IMG/VR virus record: IMGVR_UViG_3300013233_000167
Location: 10,461-74,460 of that record
Source: a virus
DNA length: 64,000 nt
Reading direction: 5' to 3' (one strand)
Shown: piece after piece, positions 3,941 through 44,497 of the stretch
How the letters are laid out: each line of letters begins with the position of its first letter
How positions within the stretch are numbered: the stretch's first letter is position 1
Notes under the pieces: model-generated
What the model was told of the DNA's origin: nothing
Database searches by the model: none
The model's input: only the letters and a program-made list of their open reading frames with translations
Program-made: the position numbers and the translations under genes

Positions 3941-4414
3941 TCATTTCTTCCAGTTGGTTTGGACCACGAGGCCCAGATGTTCTTGTTCCCACTCTAAGCG
4001 CTTCTCGATCGCAAGACGACGTGCACCCCGCACTCCATTCGCTGCCACCGAGTAGCTAGTATGCAAAACTCGACCATTCGCACGCAAGTAAACGTGGAAG
4101 TCGTCGTAGTCCACGGCCCGCCCATGACGGTTCACCGTCTTCCTACGGGTCACGCCCGATGGCAAGTTGCCCTTGGTGCGCTTCCGACCCACCGGCCACC
4201 GAAAACATTGCGCCGGTCCTAACTTCTCCCGCGTCTCTTCGACCCACTCCCTAGCGCACGCTTTTCCCTTACAAATACTACGGTTACTCGCATCGCCGAA
4301 CCACTTCGAGTAACGCTTTCCGCTTCGCATCACACGCGCGTACCACCCATGCTGTGATCGCCAACGGCCATTTGACTGTCGGTACTCTTGGTCTATCCGC
4401 AAGACGCCGTTCAC
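3941..4414 (-). CDS. AP2-domain DNA-binding protein
   Basis: Two AP2-like segments: WYARVMRSGKRYSKWFGD and YSVAANGVRGARRLAIEKRLEWE. Confidence 0.6.
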   Translation of the reverse strand: MNGVLRIDQEYRQSNGRWRSQHGWYARVMRSGKRYSKWFGDASNRSICKGKACAREWVEETREKLGPAQCFRWPVGRKRTKGNLPSGVTRRKTVNRHGRAVDYDDFHVYLRANGRVLHTSYSVAANGVRGARRLAIEKRLEWEQEHLGLVVQTNWKK

Positions 4415-4818
4415 GATGCAATAACCGGATCGAACGCAGACATGTGCGCAGCCGCGATGTCATACAAGCGCTCCACCACACGCTGAAAAATCAGCGCGCT
4501 GTTCCGGCCGCAGAAGTGAAGCTGATAATCGTCACCCTGCCCAACCGTAAGATCCATGCAGCCGTCCCACTTCAACGACCCATACATGAACACTTGCGCG
4601 TCGTCCAACCCGGTCGAGAAGGTCAACGGAGAGTCGGCCCCCTGTTGCGTGAACTGCACCGGACCCTTCCCGTTGACGGGACCTGCGACGATCTCCAATA
4701 TCACGTAATTCATCCAGCGCGTGCCGATGCAGCAGAACACGACGAACTCATCCTTCAAAGTCGCTTCATCCAACGGAGGAAACGCTCGCGGCATCTGGCT
4801 AGGCGTAAGATCTAACAT
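4411..4818 (-). CDS. hypothetical protein
   Basis: Start MLDLTP overlaps the thyX stop; protein-like composition. Confidence 0.65.
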   Translation of the reverse strand: MLDLTPSQMPRAFPPLDEATLKDEFVVFCCIGTRWMNYVILEIVAGPVNGKGPVQFTQQGADSPLTFSTGLDDAQVFMYGSLKWDGCMDLTVGQGDDYQLHFCGRNSALIFQRVVERLYDIAAAHMSAFDPVIAS

Positions 4819-12136: not shown

Positions 12137-15100
12137 CTACACGTTGGACCGTAGGTCATCCCAGGTCTTCCTAGCCGCACCGATGGGCTCCCGATCCGTG
12201 TCGGGAGGCCGGGTGTCATTGGCGGCGCGCGCCGTCTGTCCGACCCGCGTGCGGGGCTCGAACTCCAGATCCGCCACCGACTCGTGCATGGCGCGCTCAT
12301 CGTTCAGGCAGAGCCACACGACGCCCGCCACCGCGTCACTCACGTCCTTAGAATTGTGAACGAACACCCCTGCGGTGAGCGCGAAGTTCTCGGTTCCCGG
12401 GACCGAGAGGTCATACACGTCTCTCAGGGATCCTTGACGAACCTCCACTACGCGATGGTTGCGCCGACGAAGCGCCGCCAACCGGCGTTCGACGAGACTC
12501 ACGCTGCACTGAAACCTGGCAGCGGCCTCTCGTTGCGTGCAGCCCGTCTCAGCAATATGTGCGACGATATCTTCGGCCACCACGTCGCCTCGACGCCGAG
12601 CCGCGATCGCAAACGCGACGGTCCGTTTGCCAATCTCCGACGCCACTCTTCGATGCTTGGCCGATTTGTTGTACTTCGTGATATTAGCGGTTCCGGTGCG
12701 CCGACCCAAAACCGTCGCACGCGCGTCCCTCGCCGAAGCAAACTCAGGGTCGAGATTCAGCTCCGTCATGTTCTTCCGCGAAAAGGCGCGGCCTTCGGGC
12801 GACCGCGCATAAGCAACGGCGCGCTCCCTACGCTTTGCCTCGAACACCGGATCCGCTCTCCGTGCGCACAGCTCCAGCGCGTGCATCCGCGAATGCTCTT
12901 CCGCAGGCATCAAGCACAGCGCACGAGGATCATTGTTCGGCTTCCCCTTCTCGTGGTGCATCACGCCATCTCCGAACTGATTGCCCGTATATCGACCCGG
13001 GTACTTCCACCTACCGACCATCCGATGCGTGAAGTGCCACTTCTCCGAAGCAGGACACCAATACAATTCATACCCACGCATCCCATCACGATTCGACACC
13101 TTGCGATACAAAGGCATCAACGAATCTTCGGGTCGCAAGTCACCAGCTTCCCTATACGTTCCGTCCCGCAGCATCCAGCGGTGATCGGGTGTGCAGCACA
13201 CTTCCTGTCCGTTGTCGAGAACCACGGTCACGGTCCGAGCACGACGACACGTCAAACGCGGACGCACGGCACGACCCGCCGAGACCTTCCCTTTCGCCAT
13301 CGTGTACACGTAGATATCCTCGTGCGCGTAATCGCGCGCGAGTTCCCGAAGCGTAACTTCGCATCCGTTCAACAACGACACCTTCGTATCACCGTCAAAA
13401 CAGCCCTTTCCTCCCTGCGTGGACTTCTGCGGGTGGTCCACCTTGTTCTTGCCCTTGAGATTGATAATGCGCTTCAAATCCAGCACTTCGTCGATGTAGG
13501 GCTTGTACTCGTACATTGAGATCCGGCGATCGAAGTGCGCGCTCCGAAGCGACAGGTAGGCGTCCTCCTTGCGGTCAACGGACTGGTGCCCCGCGTCTAT
13601 GTGGTGCTTCTTGAGGATCTGAATCGAGTCGCTCGACTGAAACTGGTCGTACGTGACCTTGGCGATCGAGAAGATGCGGTTGAGAAACAAGATGAATGCC
13701 CGCACCTTCGAGAGATCGACCTCGCCTCCGTTGGGAGCCCTGACCCGCAGCATGAGGTCGATGATGATAAATGGGTTCGAGACGGTCGAGACCAACCCCT
13801 CGGCGTCGATCCTCTCCACCTTCACCGATCCGGCGACGTGCCCCATAGCGATCCCGAGCGCGTCGTCCGTGAGCCCGATATCAACATGAATGAAACGCGG
13901 GCACTTCGGATTCAGGCGCGGGACGTGCTTCGACCCCACCACGCGCACGACGCGCTTGGCGATGAAGCTCTCTTCGATCAGCGAGTCGTCGTCGATGTCG
14001 CAGATGATCTCGGTACGCGAGAACGGATGCCGCATATTCTCCGACACAGCCTCGTGTACTGACGCTCGGTCTCGAATCAGCGGCGAGACGTTGAACGTGG
14101 CGACGCCCGCCATGTCGCGCAGAGCTTGGTCCAGGTCTTCGTCGAACGACTTCCGCAGCTCCAACGGCACGTCGATGACTCGTGCGCCCTTACGAGGCTC
14201 CTCGCCGGGTTCCAGAATCCGCGACGAGGATCGACGATCACCAACCTCGACGTTGAAGCCCGGAAACGTATAGCGGCTCTTCGGCTTACATTCCCACAGC
14301 GCGTAGTCCGAGACGAACGTATGCTGCGCGTGGTCACCGCCCATCACCGTCCGCAAGTGCTCTTCCAGGAACGAAGTCTGCGCGTTGCGCGAGCTGATGA
14401 GAAACAGCATCCCGGGAAGCACCCCGCCGGGTCGGCCAAAGCGCGACTGGAGGCGTGTGTACGTCGCGTTGTAGAGATCGTACGCCTGCCCGATCGTCTT
14501 GCCCGTCTCCTTGTCCTCCTTCTCCATCATAAAGTTCGCCTCGTCCATGAGGAAGGCGAACAGGTCGAGACCGAGAGCGTGTCCCGCGCGAGAACCAGCC
14601 ATGACCTGAATCTTCTTGCGAGCAACCGGCTCGAAGTCGATCGGCGCATCTTTCCTCGGATCGCGCGGACAGTGTTCGGAGAAGTAATCGCTGTTGTCGA
14701 TGTAGCCACGCAGTTTGTAGAAGCCAGCGCCCGTCGCTTGCGTGAGCGTCTTCGAGTAGACACCGAACACGATCTTCTCGTCGGGCAGCAACCCGTAGTA
14801 CCTAGAAGCGTCGCGCAAGCACGACAGCACGCAGAGCTTGTAGCCCATCGCCACGTCCGACACCGTGGTCTTGCCAGTTCCGATTGCACCTGTGAGCACC
14901 CACTCGAAGACGGGCGATCCAGGACGGAAGACCTCGTACAGATCTTCCTTCCAACGTGGGTGCAGGAACGACGCGGCACGGCCGAAGTAGTAATCGTCCT
15001 CGATGAACTCCTCGATCGTTGGTGGCTGTCGCAGGTAGTCCACCTCCCACAACAGGCTGTGCAACGACGTGTCCGCCTGACCGTCCACAATCGCTTCCGC

Positions 15101-15286
15101 GAGCCACTCCACTACGAGCGCGCGTTCAGGTTTGGACAGCCCGTTGAACAGATCGCGGTCTCCGTACAACGTCTCCTCGGCAACGCGGTTGAAAAGCTGT
15201 ACGTGCTCGTCGCGCAGCACGCGGGTCGCTTGAATAGAGCCCTTTCCTGCGCGGATGACCTTCGGCTTGGGTCTACGATGCACCAC
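12137..15286 (-). CDS. terL: terminase large subunit (intein-containing)
   Basis: Walker A GAIGTGKT, Walker B FLMDE; nuclease motifs IHVDIG, YDQFQS, DHP...SKDVSDA. Confidence 0.9.
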   Translation of the reverse strand: MVHRRPKPKVIRAGKGSIQATRVLRDEHVQLFNRVAEETLYGDRDLFNGLSKPERALVVEWLAEAIVDGQADTSLHSLLWEVDYLRQPPTIEEFIEDDYYFGRAASFLHPRWKEDLYEVFRPGSPVFEWVLTGAIGTGKTTVSDVAMGYKLCVLSCLRDASRYYGLLPDEKIVFGVYSKTLTQATGAGFYKLRGYIDNSDYFSEHCPRDPRKDAPIDFEPVARKKIQVMAGSRAGHALGLDLFAFLMDEANFMMEKEDKETGKTIGQAYDLYNATYTRLQSRFGRPGGVLPGMLFLISSRNAQTSFLEEHLRTVMGGDHAQHTFVSDYALWECKPKSRYTFPGFNVEVGDRRSSSRILEPGEEPRKGARVIDVPLELRKSFDEDLDQALRDMAGVATFNVSPLIRDRASVHEAVSENMRHPFSRTEIICDIDDDSLIEESFIAKRVVRVVGSKHVPRLNPKCPRFIHVDIGLTDDALGIAMGHVAGSVKVERIDAEGLVSTVSNPFIIIDLMLRVRAPNGGEVDLSKVRAFILFLNRIFSIAKVTYDQFQSSDSIQILKKHHIDAGHQSVDRKEDAYLSLRSAHFDRRISMYEYKPYIDEVLDLKRIINLKGKNKVDHPQKSTQGGKGCFDGDTKVSLLNGCEVTLRELARDYAHEDIYVYTMAKGKVSAGRAVRPRLTCRRARTVTVVLDNGQEVCCTPDHRWMLRDGTYREAGDLRPEDSLMPLYRKVSNRDGMRGYELYWCPASEKWHFTHRMVGRWKYPGRYTGNQFGDGVMHHEKGKPNNDPRALCLMPAEEHSRMHALELCARRADPVFEAKRRERAVAYARSPEGRAFSRKNMTELNLDPEFASARDARATVLGRRTGTANITKYNKSAKHRRVASEIGKRTVAFAIAARRRGDVVAEDIVAHIAETGCTQREAAARFQCSVSLVERRLAALRRRNHRVVEVRQGSLRDVYDLSVPGTENFALTAGVFVHNSKDVSDAVAGVVWLCLNDERAMHESVADLEFEPRTRVGQTARAANDTRPPDTDREPIGAARKTWDDLRSNV
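12353..13402 (-). mobile_element. intein with HNH-type homing endonuclease in terminase
   Basis: GGKG|CFDGDTKV...CTPDHRW...FALTAGVFVHN|SKD; internal HRMV...HHEKGKPNNDP; 350 aa. Confidence 0.92.
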
Positions 15287-16578: not shown

Positions 16579-16965
16579 CTAGTAGTCTTTCTCCCACAGA
16601 TTATGAGAGGTTTGAAAACGGACAGCGAAGTCTGTACGCGCCGGGTGCATCTCGCCCGTCGTTGGGCTGCGATACTCCCGAGGGTTCCGCTCGTAAGTGG
16701 TGAGGGTGCCGACGTTGCAGAAGACGACCGAGCCCCCCGGTGATCCGAGGGCGAGGCGCATCCGAGCGAGCAAAAAGTCCCAGATCGCCTCCGTCTCCGC
16801 GTACGTCAGTCCGAACTCCTCCGCGATTGCCCGCGTGATGGGCGTCTTGGAGATTTTCGCAGCATCGTCTGCACTAGGTCGTCGAGCAAGAGCATTCCTA
16901 ACACCTCGCCGCTTGGGCGAGTCATCGTCAGGATTGGTCCCTTTTGTGGTTTTGGTTGAAGCCAT
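16579..16965 (-). CDS. HU-like DNA-binding protein
   Basis: RAIAEEFGLT..E...GSVVFCNVGTL....R.PREYRSPTTGE...VRFQTS is an HU signature; start uncertain because it overlaps the resolvase 3' end. Confidence 0.7.
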   Translation of the reverse strand: MASTKTTKGTNPDDDSPKRRGVRNALARRPSADDAAKISKTPITRAIAEEFGLTYAETEAIWDFLLARMRLALGSPGGSVVFCNVGTLTTYERNPREYRSPTTGEMHPARTDFAVRFQTSHNLWEKDY

Positions 16966-18473
16966 TCGAGAGTCTTGGCGCGTATCAGCACGTACGTTTT
17001 CCGTCGGTTGCGTGAGAAAATCAAGAGTGGGTGGGCATTTTCCCAGGTCTCGGCCTGCGCGACGCACTGATCCCACCACGCCCACAGCGGGTACTTCGGC
17101 TGCTCGAACATGCGCTCCATCTCGCGACAGCCCTTGTCGCCCTCGATCTTCTTGCAGTTGTGGACAACGATCCCGCCCTCGATCACGTAGGTCTCGTCCT
17201 CTTCCACACTCAGATTCCAAACCTCTCTCCTCCCTTCCGTCAGAGACCACGGACTACGCAGGCGCGTGAAAATTCGACTGCGGCGCAGATCATACACAGG
17301 CTCAGTGCGCTCGTCAGACAAACACGACGCAGCTCGATGGTCAGCGAACCCTCCGTTACCCCACACCGCTGAACGGAAGCGATCCAAACTGCTACGTGCG
17401 ACCTGTACCGAATACAACGGACGCGGCCTCTTCCGCTCACCACTCGCAATCAGCGACACACCAACCCTAGAGAATACGCCAAGCCGTAGCAACGCAAACT
17501 GTACTTCCAACGCTAAGCGACGGCTCACAGTCTCACTGCGCGCAAACCCCGGCCCACGGCAACCATTGCCCTCGAAGTATCCGCGAAGCAACGCTGCGAC
17601 CAAAGACTTCGACCGCCACACATGTAGGCCCAGCCGCTTCTGTGCACTCCCCGAACCCATCCACGATTTGAAACAGTGAGCCAGCGCCGTCGAGGAGACG
17701 CTCACTGTCACTGCTTTCGTCTCCTCGTATGCGTAAACGACCGACGCCTCTCCGAACACCTGCTCCAGCATCCTCCTAACGAACTCGATGTACTCCGTCT
17801 CCGCCTCGTGAAACGTCCACGTCACACTACCCACCTCGGCCCGGCCCTCCGCCGCATACAGACCCAACAGGCGCATGAGGTCTTCGTCAACACGAACGCG
17901 CGAAACTGCAACGGGCCGGGCCTTCGGCCCGCGACTCTTCGCAGGATACGTCGGCACACGTAGCCACTTTGCCTGACTGTCGGCTCTATTCGATAGCAAG
18001 CTCATGTGCGATAGCGAACGCGCTTCCCTCGCAGGCCGCCACCCACCATCGAAGTCTTCCACAGGATGCGAAGCGGTGACAACGATCGGCTCCGTCATCG
18101 CCTCACACAGCAGCTCACCCGACGTAGAAGTCTTCTTGCTGAAAACATCGGTAACTTTCCTAAACCGCCCGCGATGTGTCAGAACACGATCCCCCACCGA
18201 CAACGACTCGATAGGTCGGAACCCCTCACGAGTCATTACCAACGTACCGCGACCGAAACACTCGACCGCGAACGGCCAATCGCCCGAGTGGCGCGGATTC
18301 ACGTCGAGGTCACCCTTCCGGTCCCACCCCTCCATCGGTGCAACGATGGTGCTCTTCGGACGCATCGGCAGCGTCGTGTAATGCGCGTCGAGCGGCGTAG
18401 CGAACCACCAATGCGAGAGCACTCGGCAGCACTCCAGCATGAACCTCTGACCTTTGCCGCGCCCCTCAGCCAC
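16806..18473 (-). CDS. Holliday junction resolvase-like PD-(D/E)xK nuclease (intein-containing)
   Basis: GRGKGQRF..E, KGDL, FAVE|CKK (after splicing), WWDQC..QA and PLLIFSRNR motifs. Confidence 0.8.
   Translation of the reverse strand: MAEGRGKGQRFMLECCRVLSHWWFATPLDAHYTTLPMRPKSTIVAPMEGWDRKGDLDVNPRHSGDWPFAVECFGRGTLVMTREGFRPIESLSVGDRVLTHRGRFRKVTDVFSKKTSTSGELLCEAMTEPIVVTASHPVEDFDGGWRPAREARSLSHMSLLSNRADSQAKWLRVPTYPAKSRGPKARPVAVSRVRVDEDLMRLLGLYAAEGRAEVGSVTWTFHEAETEYIEFVRRMLEQVFGEASVVYAYEETKAVTVSVSSTALAHCFKSWMGSGSAQKRLGLHVWRSKSLVAALLRGYFEGNGCRGPGFARSETVSRRLALEVQFALLRLGVFSRVGVSLIASGERKRPRPLYSVQVARSSLDRFRSAVWGNGGFADHRAASCLSDERTEPVYDLRRSRIFTRLRSPWSLTEGRREVWNLSVEEDETYVIEGGIVVHNCKKIEGDKGCREMERMFEQPKYPLWAWWDQCVAQAETWENAHPLLIFSRNRRKTYVLIRAKTLEWLQPKPQKGPILTMTRPSGEVLGMLLLDDLVQTMLRKSPRRPSRGQSRRSSD
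17157..18260 (-). mobile_element. intein with LAGLIDADG homing endonuclease in the resolvase
   Basis: AVE|CFGRGTLV...VTASHP...LLGLYAAEG...LLRGYFEGNG...GIVVHN|CKK; 368 aa. Confidence 0.92.
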
Positions 18474-27218: not shown

Positions 27219-29276
27219 TCAACTGTCGTCCTCATCCTCCAGGTCCGCCGACACGCCTTTCTTGTCGAGCAGGTACTTCTCCACACCCCCGGCCAACGAC
27301 ACCGCCTTGAGGGCAGCGTTCGCGCCGGAGCAGAAGCCCGGGTCACCCATGCGGTCGAACCAGTCGCCCCGCTTGAAGGCCCCGTCGGACCACGGGACGA
27401 GGATTCTCCCCGGTCCCTTGGCCTTCTTGATGATCCCGGCTTCGGTCAGCAGGTGTTGAGCGGTCAGCTCCACGCTCGGCCCGTGCGTGAAGTCCAGCAC
27501 CCACTCCGTCCGCCGGTGAGGCGGCGCGAGTCGGCACTTGTCCGTGATGGTGGAGATCTTGTAGCCGGTGGGCGCGATGCCCTTCGCACGCTTCGCGGGC
27601 AGCCTGCCGATCACCCGATTCGCCACCCGCTGAGACGCCGCGAACTTCACGGCCCGGCCTCCAGTCGTGTCGGTCTGCGGGCCACCCCAGCTAGAGAAGC
27701 CTCCGATCTTCGAGCGGTTCTGGTTGATCCACATGACGTGGGCGCGGACCTTGGCGATCTCCCGAAACATCTTGCGGCAGCCCTTCGACATGATTCGCGC
27801 GTGGAGGCCAACGAACGAGTCTGTCATCTTCCCCTCCAACTCGTCCTTCGGCACAGCCGCCGCGATCGAGTCCCACACGATAAGCGTCGGTGCGCCGGGG
27901 TCGCGGGTCTTGAGGTCGTTTAGGATCGCCCACGTCGCCTCCCAGCCCTCTTCCGCGTGCGCGGGCGCGAGGTAGATGAGACGCTCCGGGTCGATGCCGA
28001 CGTTAGCCATCTTCGCAGCGTCGAGCGCGACCTCGTAGTCGAGAAGCACCGGGATACCGCCCGTCCGCTGACACTGACGAATCGCCATGTGCGCAAGCGC
28101 CGACTTGCCGCAGTTGTGGATCACAAGACCCTCAGCGATGTAGTTGCGGTACGGGTCCTCCATCTTGATGTCGTAGGTAGGCTTGATACCGACCGGAGTG
28201 ATCGACACCACGCGGTCCTCCACGACCACGTACCTAAGATTGCTGTCAGTCTCTAACGCATGTTCGCGGTTGTGCGCATCACCATCCACGACGACGAGGT
28301 TGTCTCTGTCGTCGTTCGACCAGTCCTCGTCGATATGGTGGACGTGCTGATCGGGGCGTAGGAACTTCATGTCGAAGAAGTCATCCGCGTCGAGACGGGC
28401 CTTGTACTCGTCGAGCGTCAGGCCGTTCATCTCGGCCTCGATGATGGCGCGAGACATCGACGGCTGTGCAGCCCTCGCTCTCGCGTGGTTCGGATGAAAT
28501 CTGACCGACAAATGCTTTCGGAAGTTTGATCTGGAAGCGGGGTCGTCGGACTGCCAATGCGTCTGGTTGTGCAAGTACAGCACGTCACCAACCGACACCT
28601 CCTCCAACGAACGGTAGCGACCCCCTACGTACATCTTGTGATCGAGCGTCGCTGTTAGCTGCGCACCTGACTCGGTAACGACTTCCAAGCACTCGCGCTC
28701 TCCGGTCTTCACCACGTCAATGATCCGCGATTGCACGATGCGATGATCGTCGTTCATCGCAGGCGCGTGGAACGTCGCACCTTCGGGTGCAAAGCGATTC
28801 TTGCCCTTGCCCGGCACCGCGATTCGATGGAAGCGTTCGTACAGACGCTCGATCGTTCCGCCCTTGCAGTTGATGAGTTTCCCGTCCGCTTGACGCACCT
28901 GATAGCCGATGAACGTCTCGGCCCAAGAGCATCCTTCGTCTCCGTACACCTCACTCGCACGCCCAACTGCCCAGCCGCCACCAAGCACGCGGTCAAGATC
29001 TGGGAAGCCTGACGGGATCCACTCCTTCACTTCGGAGAGCGAGTCTGCTTGTCCCAACACCGTCACCACGCTGTCGGTCTTCGTGCCGAGACGCTTCTTG
29101 ATGGCCTTGACCATCGAGTCGGTATCGGACGGCTTCGCCTTGCGCGAGGTCTTCTTCTTCTTACTCGCGGCTGCGCCGGACTTTGCGGGCGACCTTCTTG
29201 CGTCCTTTTTTCTTGACGGTCTTTTTGCGGCCGTCTTTGCGGCGTGGGAAGTCTTCGCTTTGTCCTTGAGGCCCAT
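27219..29276 (-). CDS. recA: RecA/UvsX recombinase (intein-containing)
   Basis: IPSGFPDLD..LGGG, GDEG|CGKS, IVWDSIAA, INQ.R and TTGGRAVKF motifs. Confidence 0.92.
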   Translation of the reverse strand: MGLKDKAKTSHAAKTAAKRPSRKKDARRSPAKSGAAASKKKKTSRKAKPSDTDSMVKAIKKRLGTKTDSVVTVLGQADSLSEVKEWIPSGFPDLDRVLGGGWAVGRASEVYGDEGCSWAETFIGYQVRQADGKLINCKGGTIERLYERFHRIAVPGKGKNRFAPEGATFHAPAMNDDHRIVQSRIIDVVKTGERECLEVVTESGAQLTATLDHKMYVGGRYRSLEEVSVGDVLYLHNQTHWQSDDPASRSNFRKHLSVRFHPNHARARAAQPSMSRAIIEAEMNGLTLDEYKARLDADDFFDMKFLRPDQHVHHIDEDWSNDDRDNLVVVDGDAHNREHALETDSNLRYVVVEDRVVSITPVGIKPTYDIKMEDPYRNYIAEGLVIHNCGKSALAHMAIRQCQRTGGIPVLLDYEVALDAAKMANVGIDPERLIYLAPAHAEEGWEATWAILNDLKTRDPGAPTLIVWDSIAAAVPKDELEGKMTDSFVGLHARIMSKGCRKMFREIAKVRAHVMWINQNRSKIGGFSSWGGPQTDTTGGRAVKFAASQRVANRVIGRLPAKRAKGIAPTGYKISTITDKCRLAPPHRRTEWVLDFTHGPSVELTAQHLLTEAGIIKKAKGPGRILVPWSDGAFKRGDWFDRMGDPGFCSGANAALKAVSLAGGVEKYLLDKKGVSADLEDEDDS
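28113..28931 (-). mobile_element. intein with HNH-type endonuclease in the RecA P-loop
   Basis: GDEG|CSWAET...ATLDHK...HVHHIDEDWSND.RDNL...HNREH...GLVIHN|CGKS; 273 aa. Confidence 0.9.
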
Positions 29277-31981: not shown

Positions 31982-34918
31982 CTATGCGTCCAGCTTGGCT
32001 TCCATCTTCTTCCACAGCTCCTCCTCGTCGAAGTCGTCGGGATCGAACCCAACGAGAGTCTTCCAGTTCACGCCGATCTCGCAATCGGAGACGATCGGCA
32101 CCTTGAGCCACGACCAGTCGAGGCCGGGCAGAACTTCCGCTGACAGCTCGACGACGTGCTCCATGACGTACTTGGCGAGCGCCATCACCTCGTACGCCTC
32201 ATCGACATATAGGTCGAATATGATGGAATCGTGCACGGTCAGGATCATCTTCGAGAGGTAGCCCTTCTCCTGCATCTCGTTCCAGATCAGCACGAGCGAC
32301 ATGAGCGTCATCTCGGACGCGCCGTTCTGCACCGGGAAGTTGACGGACTGTCGGAGCGCACGCGAGACGATCTGATCGTCCTCGCTGAACACCTCGGGGA
32401 TGCGGCGGCGTCGGCCCGTGAAGCTCTCCAGATAGCCGGACGCGCACACTTCGGCCTCCAGGGCCTCGATGCCCGCCTTGAGCTTCGGACGCACCTCGAA
32501 GTACCGCTCGACCAACGCCTCGCACTCGTCCAGGCTAAGGAAATCGCCTTCCTTGCGCAGCGCGGCCTGGAGGGCCGGGGGTCCTCCTCCGTACAGGATT
32601 CCGAAGTTGATCCGCTTGGCCTGCGTGCGGCGTCGTTTCTGCTCGTGTGAGTCGAGAGCCTCGTACTGCTCCTTCGTCATGCTGAACAGGTCGAGCGCCG
32701 TGTTGAGGTGCATATCCTCTCCACGGATGTACGTGTCGATCATCGCCGTCTCGTTGAAGAGACTCGCGGCGACGCGCAGCTCGACCTGCGAATAATCAGC
32801 CTGACCGATCAGCCCCTCGTCACCGAAGCGCGACACGTACGCTGACTTGATGAGCGCGCCGCCCTTGTTCGGGATGTTCTGTAGGTTGGGATCGTCCGAC
32901 GACAGGCGGCCCGTCACCGTTCCGTGGATGTTGAAGTTGCCGTGGATGCGTCCGAACGGATCGAGGTTGTACTTGAGCGGCTTGACGAACGTGCCGAACA
33001 GCGTCTCGGCCTCACGGTATTGAAGGATGAGAGGGCACAGCTCGTTGCCGTTGCGCTCAAGCTCGTGCAGCACCTCCGCATCCGTGGAGAACAGGTTCCA
33101 CTCTTCCGCCTTTACGGACGCGCGCACTGACGACTGAAAGCGCGGCTTCGATCCTTTGCGCTTCGCGCGCCACTTCGCCACGGCGTTGTTGTAGCGGAGC
33201 GCCACGCGCTCGCGTCCGCCTTTCGTCAGGTGGATGGGCGTCTCTCCCATGATCCCGAACAGCACTTGCTGTAGCTGTGGTCCCGAGCCCGGGTTGAATA
33301 CACCCGCGTCGCCGATCTTGTTCGGGTCGCTCGCGTAGTCCTTGACCTCCGGGAACTCCGCGACCTCCTGCCGCTTCACCGCCATCTCCGTCGTGTACTT
33401 CTCGTCGAGCAGCTCCACAACGTCGGGGTCGATCTGCGCGCCCTCGAACTCCATGTCGGCCAACGCAGCCGACAGCGCAGGCAGGAACGTCTCGGCAAGC
33501 ATCTGTAGCTGCGGGTTCGACGTGTAGTCGGGATGCTCAAGGAGCGCATCGTCCACGCGAAGCGTCACGTCGGCGTCCATCGCCGCATACGGGAACAGGA
33601 TGTCGCCCGGGATGTTGGCGAAGCTGCCTCCGCGTTTCGGGTTGGCCTCGGGGTGAGTGGCCCGGTACTGCCCCATCGGCTCGTCGTAGCCGCCCATGCC
33701 CGTGAAGCCGTACGCGAGCTGCTTCAAGCCGTGCGTACCCTTGCGCTCATCGAGGACGAGGTGCGTGAGCATCGTGTCTCGGTAGTTGACGAGCGCATAG
33801 CCGGTCGCCTCCAGCATGTGCTTGTGATCGAACTTGCCGTTCTGGAGCACCTTCTCAATCTCGGGGTCTTCGAGCAGCCCTCCGATCAGCTCGAACAACT
33901 CCTCGCGCTCGTGCTCCATCGGTCCGCCGATGCGCCACGGACTGTCCTGGTGATCGAGCGGAATCACGTATGCCTCGCCGACGCGGTTGGTGAGCGAGAA
34001 GCACAGGAGCGCCGGGAACTCAGTTTGGAACCAGTAGAGCGAGCCCGTCTCGGTATCTACCGCGACCTTGGTGCCGTCCTCGCGGTAGAAGTCGATCAGC
34101 TCGCGCACGCCGTCAAGCGTGTCGAGCACGAAGTATTCACCCTCGCCCGGCAGCGACTCGTAGTCACCGAGAGCCACGTCGCGCACCATCTCGAACGCCT
34201 CGATGAAGCGCGGCATCTCGTGGTCCATCCGACACACGTACGCAGGGTGAATGCACGCCACTACCTTGATGTCCTCGAACCCCTCGATCGAGCAGTCGAG
34301 TACACGGCCGTTGAACGTCGTGATGCCTGTCTGTCCCGTCAGGTACTCAAGCGCCACGCCGCCGAGCGCGACCAACACCTTTGGCTTGCGCGCCTTGATC
34401 TCTCGATAGAGATGCGGAAGGCAGCTCTGCGCAATCGTCTTGCCCGGCTTCTTGTTGCGAGGCGGGCGACAGCGCGCGATGTTCGTGAAGCCAAACTGAC
34501 TCTTGCTCAGCAGAGCATCGCCCTTGTCGTCAACCGTAGTGTCGCACAGCGCCTCGATGGCTCCTCGCAGCAACGTGCCCGACTGACCCACGAACGGCGT
34601 CGCGGTCTTGTCCTCGTTCGCGCCCGGAGCTTCGCCGACGCATAGGACATCCACTGGCGACCAACCGTCTTCCTGCACGCAGCGGTTGCGTACTGCGTGG
34701 CCCTCGGGCTCTTTGGCAAGGATCTTCTCCGCGTCGCGGTTGTAATCGCCGCCGCACGGAAAGTCCGGGCTCCACGGGAACAGCGGACACCACCGACACC
34801 CAGACTTCGGCTCATCGCCCGGCAAGACCAACGGTCGTGTCGCCGATATGACCTTCGTGCGAGCCTTCGTCTTGAGACCTACACGCCGGACTTTTCGCTT
34901 CCGGCGAGTGGTCGTCAC
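31982..34918 (-). CDS. polA: family A DNA polymerase with N-terminal family-4 uracil-DNA glycosylase domain and 3'-5' exonuclease
   Basis: UDG: VGEAPGANED...PFVGQSG, CRPP, HPAY. Exo: AVDTET, NGKFD, YAAMDAD. Pol: TGRLSS, ADYSQVELR, AKRINFGILYG, TVHDS. Confidence 0.95.
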   Translation of the reverse strand: MTTTRRKRKVRRVGLKTKARTKVISATRPLVLPGDEPKSGCRWCPLFPWSPDFPCGGDYNRDAEKILAKEPEGHAVRNRCVQEDGWSPVDVLCVGEAPGANEDKTATPFVGQSGTLLRGAIEALCDTTVDDKGDALLSKSQFGFTNIARCRPPRNKKPGKTIAQSCLPHLYREIKARKPKVLVALGGVALEYLTGQTGITTFNGRVLDCSIEGFEDIKVVACIHPAYVCRMDHEMPRFIEAFEMVRDVALGDYESLPGEGEYFVLDTLDGVRELIDFYREDGTKVAVDTETGSLYWFQTEFPALLCFSLTNRVGEAYVIPLDHQDSPWRIGGPMEHEREELFELIGGLLEDPEIEKVLQNGKFDHKHMLEATGYALVNYRDTMLTHLVLDERKGTHGLKQLAYGFTGMGGYDEPMGQYRATHPEANPKRGGSFANIPGDILFPYAAMDADVTLRVDDALLEHPDYTSNPQLQMLAETFLPALSAALADMEFEGAQIDPDVVELLDEKYTTEMAVKRQEVAEFPEVKDYASDPNKIGDAGVFNPGSGPQLQQVLFGIMGETPIHLTKGGRERVALRYNNAVAKWRAKRKGSKPRFQSSVRASVKAEEWNLFSTDAEVLHELERNGNELCPLILQYREAETLFGTFVKPLKYNLDPFGRIHGNFNIHGTVTGRLSSDDPNLQNIPNKGGALIKSAYVSRFGDEGLIGQADYSQVELRVAASLFNETAMIDTYIRGEDMHLNTALDLFSMTKEQYEALDSHEQKRRRTQAKRINFGILYGGGPPALQAALRKEGDFLSLDECEALVERYFEVRPKLKAGIEALEAEVCASGYLESFTGRRRRIPEVFSEDDQIVSRALRQSVNFPVQNGASEMTLMSLVLIWNEMQEKGYLSKMILTVHDSIIFDLYVDEAYEVMALAKYVMEHVVELSAEVLPGLDWSWLKVPIVSDCEIGVNWKTLVGFDPDDFDEEELWKKMEAKLDA

Positions 34919-42172: not shown

Positions 42173-44497
42173 CTACTTATCTTCGGTGCGAAGAAAATAA
42201 TCACGGAGCGCCTGCTTTCGTGCGTCCTCAGTACGCAGGCGCGCGTACGCGAGGAGCCGGTTGAACCGGGCGAAGTCACGGTCGCGCTTCTCCGCGATCC
42301 GATCCACCGGCATCTCTGCGGCCAGATCAGCGCGCCACTTGATGATTTTTACCGAGAGCCCCGCGACTGCCTTCCCGATGTTCAGTACGGCCTTACGATT
42401 GCCCTGGAGCGACTCAAGCGCGCGCGTCACGTAGTAGGTGGTGAGTCCCGACTGCTCCTTGAGTGCCGTCTTGTTGATCCACACTTCGAGCACGTTGGTC
42501 TTCTCGGTCGCATACGCGGGCTCGACGCAGCTCTCCGAGAACGTGCGCCAGACGTGCACTATCTGCGGCTTCGCTTTACCGGGCTCCTCGATGGCTTGGC
42601 GGAGCGCCTCACGATCGACGGTGATCGGCACGCCTTCCTTGATGGAGCGGCGTTCGAGCAGACCCGCCGAGTGTAGTCGGTTCAGGATGACGCCCACTTG
42701 ATCGGGGCTCAGTGCCGAGACCTTCTTGGCCGTGATCTCCTGCGAGAGTGCGTTGCGGTTCGTACGCATCGACTGACCGGGTTGCAGCATGGCGTGCAAG
42801 TGCTCCCACACGAGTTGGTAATGCTGCCACGGAGGGTTCTCGTTCTCGATCAGACGCATCTGCCACTCAGCCGAGCCTTGGTCGCCAAGCAGAATCGTCT
42901 CCGACACCTGACCGTCACGACCCGCGCGACCGATCTGCTGCGTGTAGTCCTCCAACGACCCAGGGAAGCCAAACAGCACGACGGTACGGATGTCTGGCAC
43001 GTCGATGCCCATGCCGAACGCCGTGGTGGCGCACACGATGCGCGCACGCCCATTCTCGTCCGCGAAGTCGTCCTGAACTTCAATGCGCCTCTTGTCCGGC
43101 AGGCCCGCGTGGTACGCGACCGCGATGCCGTCGCCGTGGATGTCCTCGCAGATCTCCGCCAGTTTGTGCGATCCGTTGCGCGACGAGCAGTAGACGAGGT
43201 GACGACCACCGCGCACGTCCATGTCGCGCGCTAGGCGGCGGAAAGTGCTCCACGAGTTGTTGTAGCCGCCGTCAATACCGCCGTCCTCGATCAAGTAGCG
43301 GAGGTTGTGACGAATCGGATCATCGACGAGGATCGTGACCTCTTCGCGGTCGAGCCCTAGCGACTGCACGATGTCTTCGACAACGATAGGAGTCGCGGTA
43401 GCCGTCATGGCGAGCACCTGGGGCCGCTCCTTTCCGTCGCTCAGCGAACGGATCAGTCGGTGGATGTGCATGTAGTCGGGACGGAACTGGTGCCCCCACT
43501 GTGAGCAGTTCGCTACGAGGATGCCTTCCGCGAAGTAGTTGTGATCGCCTTCGACCGTGAGCGAATACACGCGCGGACCGTCTTCGCCACCTCCGCCGCG
43601 TCTTCTAGGATCGCTTGCGATGAGAGTCTCAACACCAACCACCCGAGACGCTTCAACTTGCGATCGCGCTTCCGGTCGAGTCGCGCCAGTGTCTCGGCTC
43701 GTTGAGCATCCGCGTAGCAAGTCTTGTCGCAGTAGCGCGCCTTCTCCCGAGCCCTTCTTGACGAGAGCTTCTTTCGGCAGTGCTCGCAACGCTTCATCAC
43801 CGACCTCAACGTCTTTCGCTTCAACATAGCCTCGATGCTCCAACCAGATCTTATGGTCGCCCGTCACGTCCAAGACTCTCCCGTCAGCGAACCGCAAGCG
43901 AAAGAGTCCTCGACCTCCGACGCGAACAACTGCGTCGTTCAAAACACAACGTTTGACTTGCCTGCCGTCGCGGTCGCAAGCCACTACGAGGTCACCAACG
44001 TGCAACGTCTCGATCGCAACCTCGCCGTTCGGTGTACGCACGCGAGTACCTGCCGGATGGCAACAATGCGCTTCATCGACTGCCACGATCGAAACGTCGG
44101 CTCGTTGGATGGTCGTAAGAAAGCTCCGCGCACCGATGCGCTCTGGTGAGATGTAAAGCAGCTTCGTCGAGCCGTTCACGAATCCCTCGACCGCATCCCA
44201 CTGCTCGTCGTCGTCCATGATGGAGTTGATGCACGCGGCCGGGATGCCGCGCGACACCGCGTCGTCCACCTGATCCTTCATAAGCGCGATCAGCGGCGAT
44301 ACCACGATCGTCCCGCCTTCCTCCAGGAGTGCGGGAAGTTGGTACAGCAGAGACTTGCCGGTGCCGGTCGGCAGTACAGCGAGCACGTCGTCTCCTTCGC
44401 CGATACACGTCATCGCAGCGCGTTGGCTCTTGCGGAAGGATTGGTAGCCCCACCGCGCGCGCAGCACTTCTCGCGCTTCGTCGAGTGTAAACATCAC
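42173..44497 (-). CDS. recQ: RecQ-family helicase (intein-containing)
   Basis: LPTGTGKSLLYQLP, VSPLIALMKDQV, DEAHC|CSQWGHQFRP, ATTAFGMGID and QQIGRAGRDG motifs. Confidence 0.93.
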   Translation of the reverse strand: MMFTLDEAREVLRARWGYQSFRKSQRAAMTCIGEGDDVLAVLPTGTGKSLLYQLPALLEEGGTIVVSPLIALMKDQVDDAVSRGIPAACINSIMDDDEQWDAVEGFVNGSTKLLYISPERIGARSFLTTIQRADVSIVAVDEAHCCHPAGTRVRTPNGEVAIETLHVGDLVVACDRDGRQVKRCVLNDAVVRVGGRGLFRLRFADGRVLDVTGDHKIWLEHRGYVEAKDVEVGDEALRALPKEALVKKGSGEGALLRQDLLRGCSTSRDTGATRPEARSQVEASRVVGVETLIASDPRRRGGGGEDGPRVYSLTVEGDHNYFAEGILVANCSQWGHQFRPDYMHIHRLIRSLSDGKERPQVLAMTATATPIVVEDIVQSLGLDREEVTILVDDPIRHNLRYLIEDGGIDGGYNNSWSTFRRLARDMDVRGGRHLVYCSSRNGSHKLAEICEDIHGDGIAVAYHAGLPDKRRIEVQDDFADENGRARIVCATTAFGMGIDVPDIRTVVLFGFPGSLEDYTQQIGRAGRDGQVSETILLGDQGSAEWQMRLIENENPPWQHYQLVWEHLHAMLQPGQSMRTNRNALSQEITAKKVSALSPDQVGVILNRLHSAGLLERRSIKEGVPITVDREALRQAIEEPGKAKPQIVHVWRTFSESCVEPAYATEKTNVLEVWINKTALKEQSGLTTYYVTRALESLQGNRKAVLNIGKAVAGLSVKIIKWRADLAAEMPVDRIAEKRDRDFARFNRLLAYARLRTEDARKQALRDYFLRTEDK
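43508..44062 (-). mobile_element. mini-intein in the RecQ DEAH box
   Basis: DEAHC|CHPAGTRV...VTGDHKI...VYSLTVEGDHNYFAEGILVAN|CSQW; 185 aa; ends in AN rather than HN. Confidence 0.88.
43513..43797 (-). CDS. nested +1-frame ORF inside the intein: zinc finger plus Vsr/DUF559-like C-terminus (probably a deleted endonuclease)
   Basis: GAGG SD then MKRCEHC...YCDKTC...DRKRDRKLKRLGWLVLRLSSQAIL. Confidence 0.6.
   Translation of the reverse strand: MKRCEHCRKKLSSRRAREKARYCDKTCYADAQRAETLARLDRKRDRKLKRLGWLVLRLSSQAILEDAAEVAKTVRACIRSRSKAITTTSRKASS

Follow-up and report, generated by a model that had tools for sequence, protein, structure and literature searches.

The present work concerns an overlapping gene within an intein, located on a 64,000-nucleotide (nt) stretch of virus DNA (hereafter referred to as the window) which comprises bases 10461-74460 of the 74,460-base IMG/VR virus record IMGVR_UViG_3300013233_000167, the estimated completeness of which is 53%. 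The RecQ-like helicase gene of this phage is interrupted at motif II by a mini-intein of 185 amino acids (aa), and on the same strand, read in the +1 frame, a 94-codon open reading frame (ORF) lies over this intein. In the family of inteins inserted at motif II of helicase genes, the homing endonuclease is encoded as a separate +1 gene positioned over the middle of the intein, and is not a domain of the intein protein. The intein of the window is probably a member of this family in which the overprinted nuclease gene has decayed to a relic. The features on which the argument relies are the following (positions are those of the window; all are located on the minus strand, indicated by (-)).

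42173-44497 (-): RecQ-like SF2 helicase gene, a 774-aa ORF specifying the precursor including the intein (ORF list, Pfam, orthologues)
44063-44497 (-): N-extein, ending in motif II, ...AVDEAHC (sequence and the intein-less orthologues P0018-P0023)
42173-43507 (-): C-extein, starting with CSQWGHQFRPDY (ORF list, orthologue comparison)
43508-44062 (-): class-1 mini-intein of 185 aa (555 nt), Cys1...Ala-Asn185, followed by a +1 Cys (Pfam, alignment, structural model)
[quoted passage not shown]
43664-43765 (-): linker in the intein frame, residues 100-133, a filler peptide representing the frame-0 reading of the nuclease-gene stump (pLDDT <50)
43508-43657 (-): C-terminal splicing domain, residues 136-185, with the RVVGVETL strand and blocks F and G (modelled strands)
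43513-43797 (-): nested +1 ORF of 94 codons plus TAG, the probable stump of a zinc-ribbon and DUF559/Vsr-like homing endonuclease gene
43804-43807 (-): GAGG, a possible Shine-Dalgarno site with a 6-nt spacer to the ATG at 43797 (sequence reading)
43717-43788 (-): first zinc knuckle, CxxC-x15-CxxxC (four Cys invariant or nearly so in a 17-sequence alignment; weak match to phrog_1271)
43570-43698 (-): C-terminal DUF559 signature, DRKRD...LGWLVLRL..., overlapping the RVVGVETL strand of the intein (Pfam profile positions 64-106 of 109)
43675-43680 (-): approximate deletion junction, nested codons L40/D41 (protein alignment, abutting tblastn matches)

The 774-aa ORF matches the Pfam families DEAD (76 bits) and Helicase_C (77 bits), its closest orthologues (64-78% identity) are named RecQ by the Joint Genome Institute, and at the junctions it reads ...VDEAHC / CHPAGT...ILVAN / CSQWGH. 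Nine orthologues of 586-601 aa with 48-78% identity (P0018-P0023 and P0025-P0027) contain DEAHCCSQWGH without interruption, and in the orthologues at 59-78% identity exactly the 185 aa are missing. Since the intein-less orthologues read DEAHCCSQWGH, the boundaries of the intein can be set to the residue (DEAHC^C), the second Cys being the +1 nucleophile, so that the intein represents a precise in-frame insertion, absent from orthologues, at a conserved host motif. Two further orthologues of the window helicase, P0024 (914 aa) and P0031 (763 aa), carry a different intein one codon upstream (DEAH^CCSQWGH), whose first residue is Ala (AHRADS or AHRPDS) and which ends in THN or NHN. In P0024 the insert (about 326 aa) resembles a filler in its middle, has no recorded Pfam endonuclease and may hide another out-of-frame or antisense gene, while P0031 looks like a mini form of the same intein. 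As for natural RecQ inteins, a limited literature search turned up only inteins used as tags, which does not show that none is known.

The intein matches Hint_2 in Pfam (33 bits, with a cut-off of 28.4) together with the C-terminal end of Intein_splicing, and it retains 13 of the 13 invariant columns of the family alignment (C1, T6, T67, H70, Y79, L111, L147, V165, Y166, H174, L182, V183 and N185). The class-1 motif residues C1, T67-x-x-H70, N185 and the +1 Cys are all present, in columns which are invariant in a 17-member alignment. An AlphaFold2 (AF2) model built with 16 relatives has a mean pLDDT of 77; residues 1-95 exceed 83, residues 100-133 stay under 50, and most residues from 134 onwards exceed 70, a dip at approximately 150-160 excepted. 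In its C-terminal part, strands are placed at residues 136-148, 164-170, 175-178 and 181-184. This model matches solved intein splicing domains (Mtu RecA, DnaB, gp41-1 and others) with E values of 3e-9 to 1e-6 and target-normalised template modelling scores of 0.8-0.87. Because the invariant columns are kept and the model matches solved splicing domains, the insert qualifies as a class-1 mini-intein that is complete. Its linker, of about 35 residues, is disordered, and the frame-0 reading of this part (residues 100-133) returned no Pfam match. The N-terminal and C-terminal splicing domains are 60% and 63% identical, respectively, to the matching part of the orthologous helicase P0004 and to its residues 407-466. 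The penultimate His of class-1 inteins is replaced in the window, as in P0004, by Ala; this residue is Ser in most of the members inserted in SNF2-type helicases and His in L023 and P0009. A His at this position is usual in inteins but not defining, and inteins without it can splice. Based on the intact motifs and the otherwise intact helicase gene, the window intein most likely still splices.

The nested ORF is read in the +1 frame with respect to the intein (44062-43797 = 265), and extends from an ATG at 43797-43795, within the Gly-Asp-Glu codons that close the N-terminal domain of the intein, to a TAG at 43515-43513 inside the intein codons GTA GCG; a second in-frame ATG upstream, at 43827, would give a 104-aa ORF. 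A preliminary description of the locus, made from the sequence alone, had reported this ORF and its frame, the ends of the intein, the GAGG, the ATG, the TAG within GTA GCG and the penultimate Ala, all of which hold. It had also tied the penultimate Ala to the nested stop codon, a causal link that is rejected here, as relatives with Ser, His or Val at this position terminate the nested ORF elsewhere, either 50 nt upstream or inside other codons.

The assignment of the nested ORF as DUF559/Vsr-like, made in the same description, is marginal in Pfam and stronger by homology to a full-length protein. The nested peptide consists of a CxxC-x15-CxxxC motif followed by DRKRDRKLKRLGWLVLRL. Its 104-aa version scores 21.1 bits against DUF559 (PF04480; cut-off 20.6), at profile positions 64-106 of 109 only, and 21.9 bits against PF18741, and a six-frame family search of the genome gives 19.8 bits for DUF559, just below the cut-off. 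The C-terminal motif D-x-x-(R/K)-(D/K/T)...LGW-x-VLRF is present, with G52, W53, V55, L56 and R57 in invariant columns. A phmmer comparison with the 266-aa protein P0012 returned an E value of 5e-12 (library of 1.8 billion proteins). P0012 aligns with both ends of the window ORF and not with its middle, and a tblastn search of this genome with P0012 accordingly produced two abutting matches, corresponding to P0012 residues 5-52 and 210-262.

P0012 is encoded by locus L039 at positions 4001-4801, in the +1 frame within a 349-aa intein inserted at DEAH^CAS of a continuous 978-aa RecQ-like ORF; its frame ends 8 nt ahead of the end of the intein, and, as in the window, its ATG lies within the codons closing the N-terminal domain, with GAGGG 5 nt ahead of it. 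When used as query, P0012 brought in 33 IMG/VR loci and 80 metagenome loci. In 58 of these (24 IMG/VR and 34 metagenome), both intein halves are present in one unbroken frame together with a +1 ORF, which comprises 227-357 codons except in the 83-codon relics L037 and L038. Clustering of these 58 loci yields 41 groups at 90% identity and 32 groups at 70%; they derive from unrelated samples with GC contents of 26-66% and show a frame offset of +1 in every case; nine further loci, cut by contig ends, are consistent with the same layout. The preliminary description had proposed an intein class whose mobility gene would be separately translated from an overlapping frame; inteins with this layout do exist, though the class is not wholly new (10.1101/2025.01.02.630785; 10.64898/2026.09.14.751524). 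The hosts are mostly SNF2-type helicases, with the intein at DE^CH-x-x-KN, the others being ResIII-type and RecQ helicases, and some insertion sites are located a few residues further along (DEFHY^CK, DESHR^CK).

P0012 and P0015 (252 aa) combine a complete DUF559 core (I-E-C/V-D-G-x-x-H) with two or three zinc ribbons of the form CxxC...CxxxC, and their tail, ...SRSK..TTTS..., is the out-of-frame reading of intein block F (..E.DHNYF..). The nested ORFs of the relatives match DUF559 in Pfam at 40-60 bits, and the search of homologous inteins proposed in the preliminary description did find full-length, stop-free +1 DUF559 ORFs, at 50-60 bits. A profile of the nested family matches, among solved structures, 3HRL, a DUF559 protein (E 1.7e-12), and 3R3P, the I-Bth0305I catalytic domain (E 1.4e-3). 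The array of zinc ribbons matches the central part of phrog_1271, whose annotation is HNH endonuclease (the match being weak for the knuckle of the window), which suggests, at the level of sequence, that it may be a DNA-binding module common to phage homing genes.

Several observations accompany this family. Loci L033-L036, L109, L111, L112, L115 and L116 carry zinc-ribbon and DUF559 ORFs of the same family, of about 299 aa, and no intein halves were detected nearby with the tblastn queries; therefore, as far as these queries can tell, the gene also occurs free-standing. The region L050:788-1603 has intein junctions (..GITGVP/CFPSGT...LIVHN/CLIGGDF) unlike helicase motif II, and may reflect a host switch. 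The SNF2 genes of L011, L007, L020 and L029 each contain two inteins, the upstream one with an in-frame LAGLIDADG endonuclease and the one at motif II with an overprinted Vsr-like gene. In the public gene call of L039, the 978-aa helicase ORF is split, the nested nuclease ORF is called (P0012), and a second call, P0038, covers a C-terminal piece of 480 aa whose start lies within intein block F; through automated annotation, such elements can thus come to look like broken genes. Closer relatives of the window locus were sought as well: a search with the intein for close related loci returned only the unrelated mini-HINT loci L004 and L005, close related loci to P0004 were not found in viral and metagenome contigs, and a search for homologues of the 94-aa ORF within a near length range yielded nothing.

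In the intact relatives, purifying selection acts on the nuclease frame, and all that is maintained in frame 0 is its freedom from stops. When the nested protein was held fixed and synonymous codons were shuffled, the intein frame was open in 0 of 500 shuffles for all 23 full-length IMG/VR loci, with a mean of 10-20 stops; when the frame-0 peptide was held fixed, the nested frame was open in 0-3 of 500 shuffles for the same loci. The corresponding values for the GC-rich L039 are 0.001 and 0.0095, and many of the loci have a GC content of 26-36%, at which alternative frames seldom lack stops. In a set of five 365-aa inteins, the substitutions at intein codon positions 1/2/3 amount to 69/65/207 in the non-overlapping N-terminal domain and to 866/408/383 in the overlap, where intein position 1 is nested position 3, and amino-acid identity in the overlap is 75% for the nested frame as compared to 58% for the intein frame; a wider set of 20 pairs displays the same substitution pattern. 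Because the substitution positions in the overlap follow the nested frame, it is the nuclease frame that is the selected one, a result that supports the interpretation given in the preliminary description. In the window itself, the chance of both frames being open across the 312-nt overlap is approximately 0.04-0.05 by synonymous shuffling, which is modest on its own, so that the relatives, and not the openness of the window frames by itself, carry the case.

The alignments with P0012 and P0004, together with the tblastn matches, bear out the internal deletion that had been suspected from the absence of the catalytic segment. The window ORF lacks about 157 codons with respect to P0012 and about 137 with respect to P0004, and the part that is gone comprises the entire catalytic core as well as zinc ribbons 2-3 and the RGGxG...Q region. 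The columns of this core (the Y-x-x-D strand and E-x-DG-x-x-H) are absent from P0002, the window ORF, and present in P0012, P0015 and all full-length loci. Judged by these columns, the window ORF would be a fragment of a DUF559/Vsr-like member and not a working one. The position of the junction is approximate, the exact deleted bases requiring a close full-length DNA relative. P0004, whose intein occupies the same insertion site and is 137 aa longer than that of the window, shares 71% identity with the window helicase in the exteins and 60-63% in the aligned intein segments. A degenerate back-translation of P0004 in the +1 frame scores 810 against P0012, as compared to 522 +/- 15 for a shuffled null and 499 for the +2 frame, and allows E-x-DG-x-x-H 25 codons ahead of a possible LGW-VLR. 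As the +1 score is far above both the null and the +2 frame, this nearest intein relative very probably has the nuclease gene whole.

What has survived the deletion can be accounted for by the overlap. LGWLVLRL is the +1 reading of the bases that code for the C-terminal HINT strand RVVGVETL, just as, in the SNF2 members, the bases of VRVESIEIL yield LGWKVLRFW in the +1 frame, and the DUF559 signature therefore survives because the same bases encode an indispensable strand of the intein. In frame 0, the bases of the first zinc knuckle are read as disordered linker. The preliminary description had suggested that the deletion kept both frames open, which is indeed observed; however, this needs no special cause, since any stop-free deletion of 3n nucleotides does so, and the helicase stays translatable only after such a deletion. 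An independent relic in an SNF2 helicase is found in the IMG/VR loci L037 (4607-5149) and L038, when compared to L018 (4724-5818): L037/L038 correspond to L018 (98% nucleotide identity) minus 552 nt between imperfect CAAAGGnATT direct repeats, and their 83-codon +1 ORF consists of the same two pieces as the stump of the window.

Taken as a mechanism, intact members of the family would operate as follows. Frame 0 would be read through the whole helicase precursor, its middle supplying a filler peptide, and the two HINT halves would fold and excise the intein from the helicase. The +1 frame would be read by ribosomes that start at the internal ATG, where the N-terminal splicing domain ends, and the separately translated product of 250-310 aa would combine two or three zinc ribbons, for DNA recognition, with a DUF559/Vsr-like nuclease core. 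This nuclease would cut intein-less helicase alleles in co-infecting phages, upon which repair would copy the element in. In the window, one internal in-frame deletion has removed about 157 codons, including zinc ribbons 2-3 and the catalytic core, leaving the start codon, the first zinc knuckle (now the frame-0 linker) and the region of the LGWxVLR helix. The stump is most likely inert, and the window intein most likely can no longer home by itself. Apart from the stump itself, no second DUF559 or P0012-like copy that might act in trans is present in the 74-kb record, which represents approximately half of the genome.

Certain points weigh against this account. With the record approximately 53% complete, an intact nuclease copy elsewhere in the phage is possible; the +1 ORF of P0004 is inferred from protein sequence only; and the penultimate Ala in place of His leaves the efficiency of splicing uncertain. 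The stump is still an unbroken ATG-to-TAG ORF with four Cys and a Shine-Dalgarno-like site, and two independent deletions have kept the same pieces, so that some residual role is possible. A comparison of the stump between the window and L039 gives 32/33/41 differences at nested positions 1/2/3, with identities of 53% versus 42%, and in the absence of a clear frame bias these differences support neither selection on the stump nor its decay.

Some of these points would suit a stump that has been kept and repurposed, namely one translated into a small zinc-ribbon protein which binds the DNA of helicase motif II or of the element, acting as a regulator or protecting against related nucleases. The four zinc ligands are all retained in an ORF that runs open from an ATG preceded by a Shine-Dalgarno-like site, which by chance is somewhat unlikely (0.04-0.05); the AF2 model of the stump has high local confidence (mean pLDDT 85); and L037/L038 independently retained the same knuckle and tail. 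Nonetheless, such a role is unlikely, as the tail is explained by the overlapping intein strand, a viable deletion must keep frame 0 open and thereby leaves the +1 frame in register, and the substitutions between the window and L039 show no nested-frame bias. Furthermore, the stump model, a knuckle with loose helices, reaches a predicted template modelling score of only 0.54, and only two relics are known, of which L037 is 98% identical to an intact relative and hence young. A more specific version, in which the 94-aa stump is a domesticated zinc-ribbon protein kept in at least two lineages (the window and L037/L038) and still recognises helicase motif-II DNA as a regulator or as a shield against related homing endonucleases, must on present sequences be rated as rather improbable. 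The preliminary description had left the choice as 'decayed or repurposed'; the former is favoured, and the surviving DUF559 signature is not evidence for the latter.

It was also considered whether the locus represents a fractured gene, in which a free-standing Vsr-like gene lies between the halves of a split intein instead of within a contiguous one. The endonuclease belongs to the same family and its 3' end overlaps the intein's C-terminal part as in the genes described by Dassa et al. 2009, and one gene caller broke up the L039 helicase (P0012, P0038). However, a split intein would have a stop after the N-terminal half followed by a new start, whereas a single ORF passes through the intein: frame 0 continues between the halves without a stop in the window (774 aa), in L039 (978 aa) and in the other loci, and there is no non-coding spacer of the kind reported in 2009. 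A split intein is therefore very improbable, and was rejected.

Poorer still are the prospects of an ordinary in-frame intein endonuclease whose change of frame stems from an assembly error or a recent pair of frameshifts. Single metagenome assemblies can hold indel errors, and the window alone would be compatible with one; this reading was nevertheless rejected because it fails on the comparative data, in which the nuclease is in the +1 frame at each of the 58 loci irrespective of sample and GC content, the intein frame is stop-free and the same before and after the overlap in each locus, and the selection pattern changes frame exactly in the overlap. Finally, the possibility that the +1 frame is open by accident in DNA of high GC content and that its similarity to DUF559 is spurious, for which the threshold Pfam scores (21.1 versus 20.6 bits, and 19.8 in the genome search) and the 58-61% GC of the region might speak, retains practically no probability, being refuted by the phmmer E value of 5e-12, by the alignment in which both P0012 ends match in order, with its tblastn counterpart, and by the out-of-frame tail ...SRSK..TTTS... 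common to the window ORF, P0012 and P0015.

Inteins with a nuclease gene in a different frame or on the other strand have already been described in two preprints (2025, 2026), neither of which contains a Vsr-like gene in the +1 frame of the same strand in helicases. Gosselin, Arsenault & Gogarten (10.1101/2025.01.02.630785) reported actinobacteriophage inteins with LAGLIDADG and VSR-like genes in antisense and endonuclease VII-like genes on the same strand ('frame 3'), hosted by polymerase, minor capsid, terminase and thymidylate synthase genes; they noted that, apart from this, VSR-like genes had been known solely in combination with split inteins, and predicted decayed and mini relics. The family described here resembles theirs in having a contiguous, presumably splicing intein with an endonuclease ORF over an unstructured linker, and differs in that the VSR-like gene is in the same-strand +1 frame, carries a zinc-ribbon array and resides at motif II of SF2 helicases, in environmental uncultured phages whose relatives range from 26 to 66% GC. 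Phillips, DeSimone & Gogarten (10.64898/2026.09.14.751524) described a cyanobacterial dnaX intein with a +2 out-of-frame LAGLIDADG ORF, in which synonymous change in the extein frame drops and full, mini and empty alleles coexist. The same-strand overlap and the purifying selection on the endonuclease frame are common to both systems, although the dnaX case involves a LAGLIDADG enzyme, a +2 frame, a cellular host and another gene.

In the fractured genes of Dassa et al. 2009 (PMC2677866), Vsr-like (EDxHD) endonuclease genes lie between split intein halves in phage DNA-metabolism genes, the host frame being broken by a stop, a 27-51 nt spacer and a new start, and the halves splicing in trans. 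[quoted passage not shown] The nuclease core of the nested family matches by profile both the DUF559 protein 3HRL and I-Bth0305I (PDB 3R3P; Taylor et al. 2011, PMC3239194), the latter being a proven homing endonuclease encoded in a group I intron; here the element is an intein, not a group I intron, and the window copy is without the catalytic-core part. In the accessible part of the report on phage ShiLan (PMC11855218), a stop-free, in-frame insertion in a DNA methylase gene hides an out-of-frame HNH gene, which likewise constitutes a phage gene insertion with an endonuclease in another frame; the nuclease is of the HNH type, and that part of the report does not identify the insertion as an intein. 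No report of a same-strand +1 Vsr-like form, or of helicase motif II as its home, was found in the literature searched.

The remainder of the window contains further inteins. A second intein, at 12353-13402 (-) inside the ORF 12137-15286, comprises 350 aa (CFDGDT...VFVHN/S) of a 1049-aa protein for which no other Pfam match was obtained; its frame reads an HNH-like stretch (HHEKGKPNND...HSRMH) and it thus looks canonical and in-frame, while a 411-aa antisense ORF covering it, at 12284-13519 (+), looks like GC-rich noise. The third, at 16806-18473 (-), reads CFGRGT...IVVHN/C and contains an in-frame LAGLIDADG_3 domain, and the C-terminal part of its host protein matches the phage PDDEXK_15 endonuclease family. 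The fourth, at 28113-28931 (-) in the recA-like ORF 27219-29276, comprises 273 aa (CSWAETF...LVIHN/C), is located at the RecA P-loop (..YGDEG^CGKS..) and carries the in-frame HNH-like motif HVHHIDEDWSNDD..NL...H..H. The tally is therefore four inteins with three endonuclease types in 64 kb of one phage. In addition, 31982-34918 (-) encodes a family A DNA polymerase in which an N-terminal domain of the uracil-DNA-glycosylase superfamily is fused ahead of the 3'-5' exonuclease.

Textbook inteins are single-frame elements, whereas at least about 40 distinct phage inteins of the family described here have 750-950 nt of double coding, with the nuclease frame being the selected one. Gene callers and intein surveys that consider only the in-frame reading will record such elements as 'mini-inteins' and overlook the nuclease gene, and may split the host gene. 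The window adds to this family a stage of decay, a RecQ-like host and a reason why the nuclease signature outlives the gene, and the empty, mini and full alleles encountered among close orthologues fit the cycle of gain, fixation and decay of homing elements. The family as a whole supports the view that inteins gained their mobility genes through the invasion of mini-inteins by free-standing endonuclease genes.

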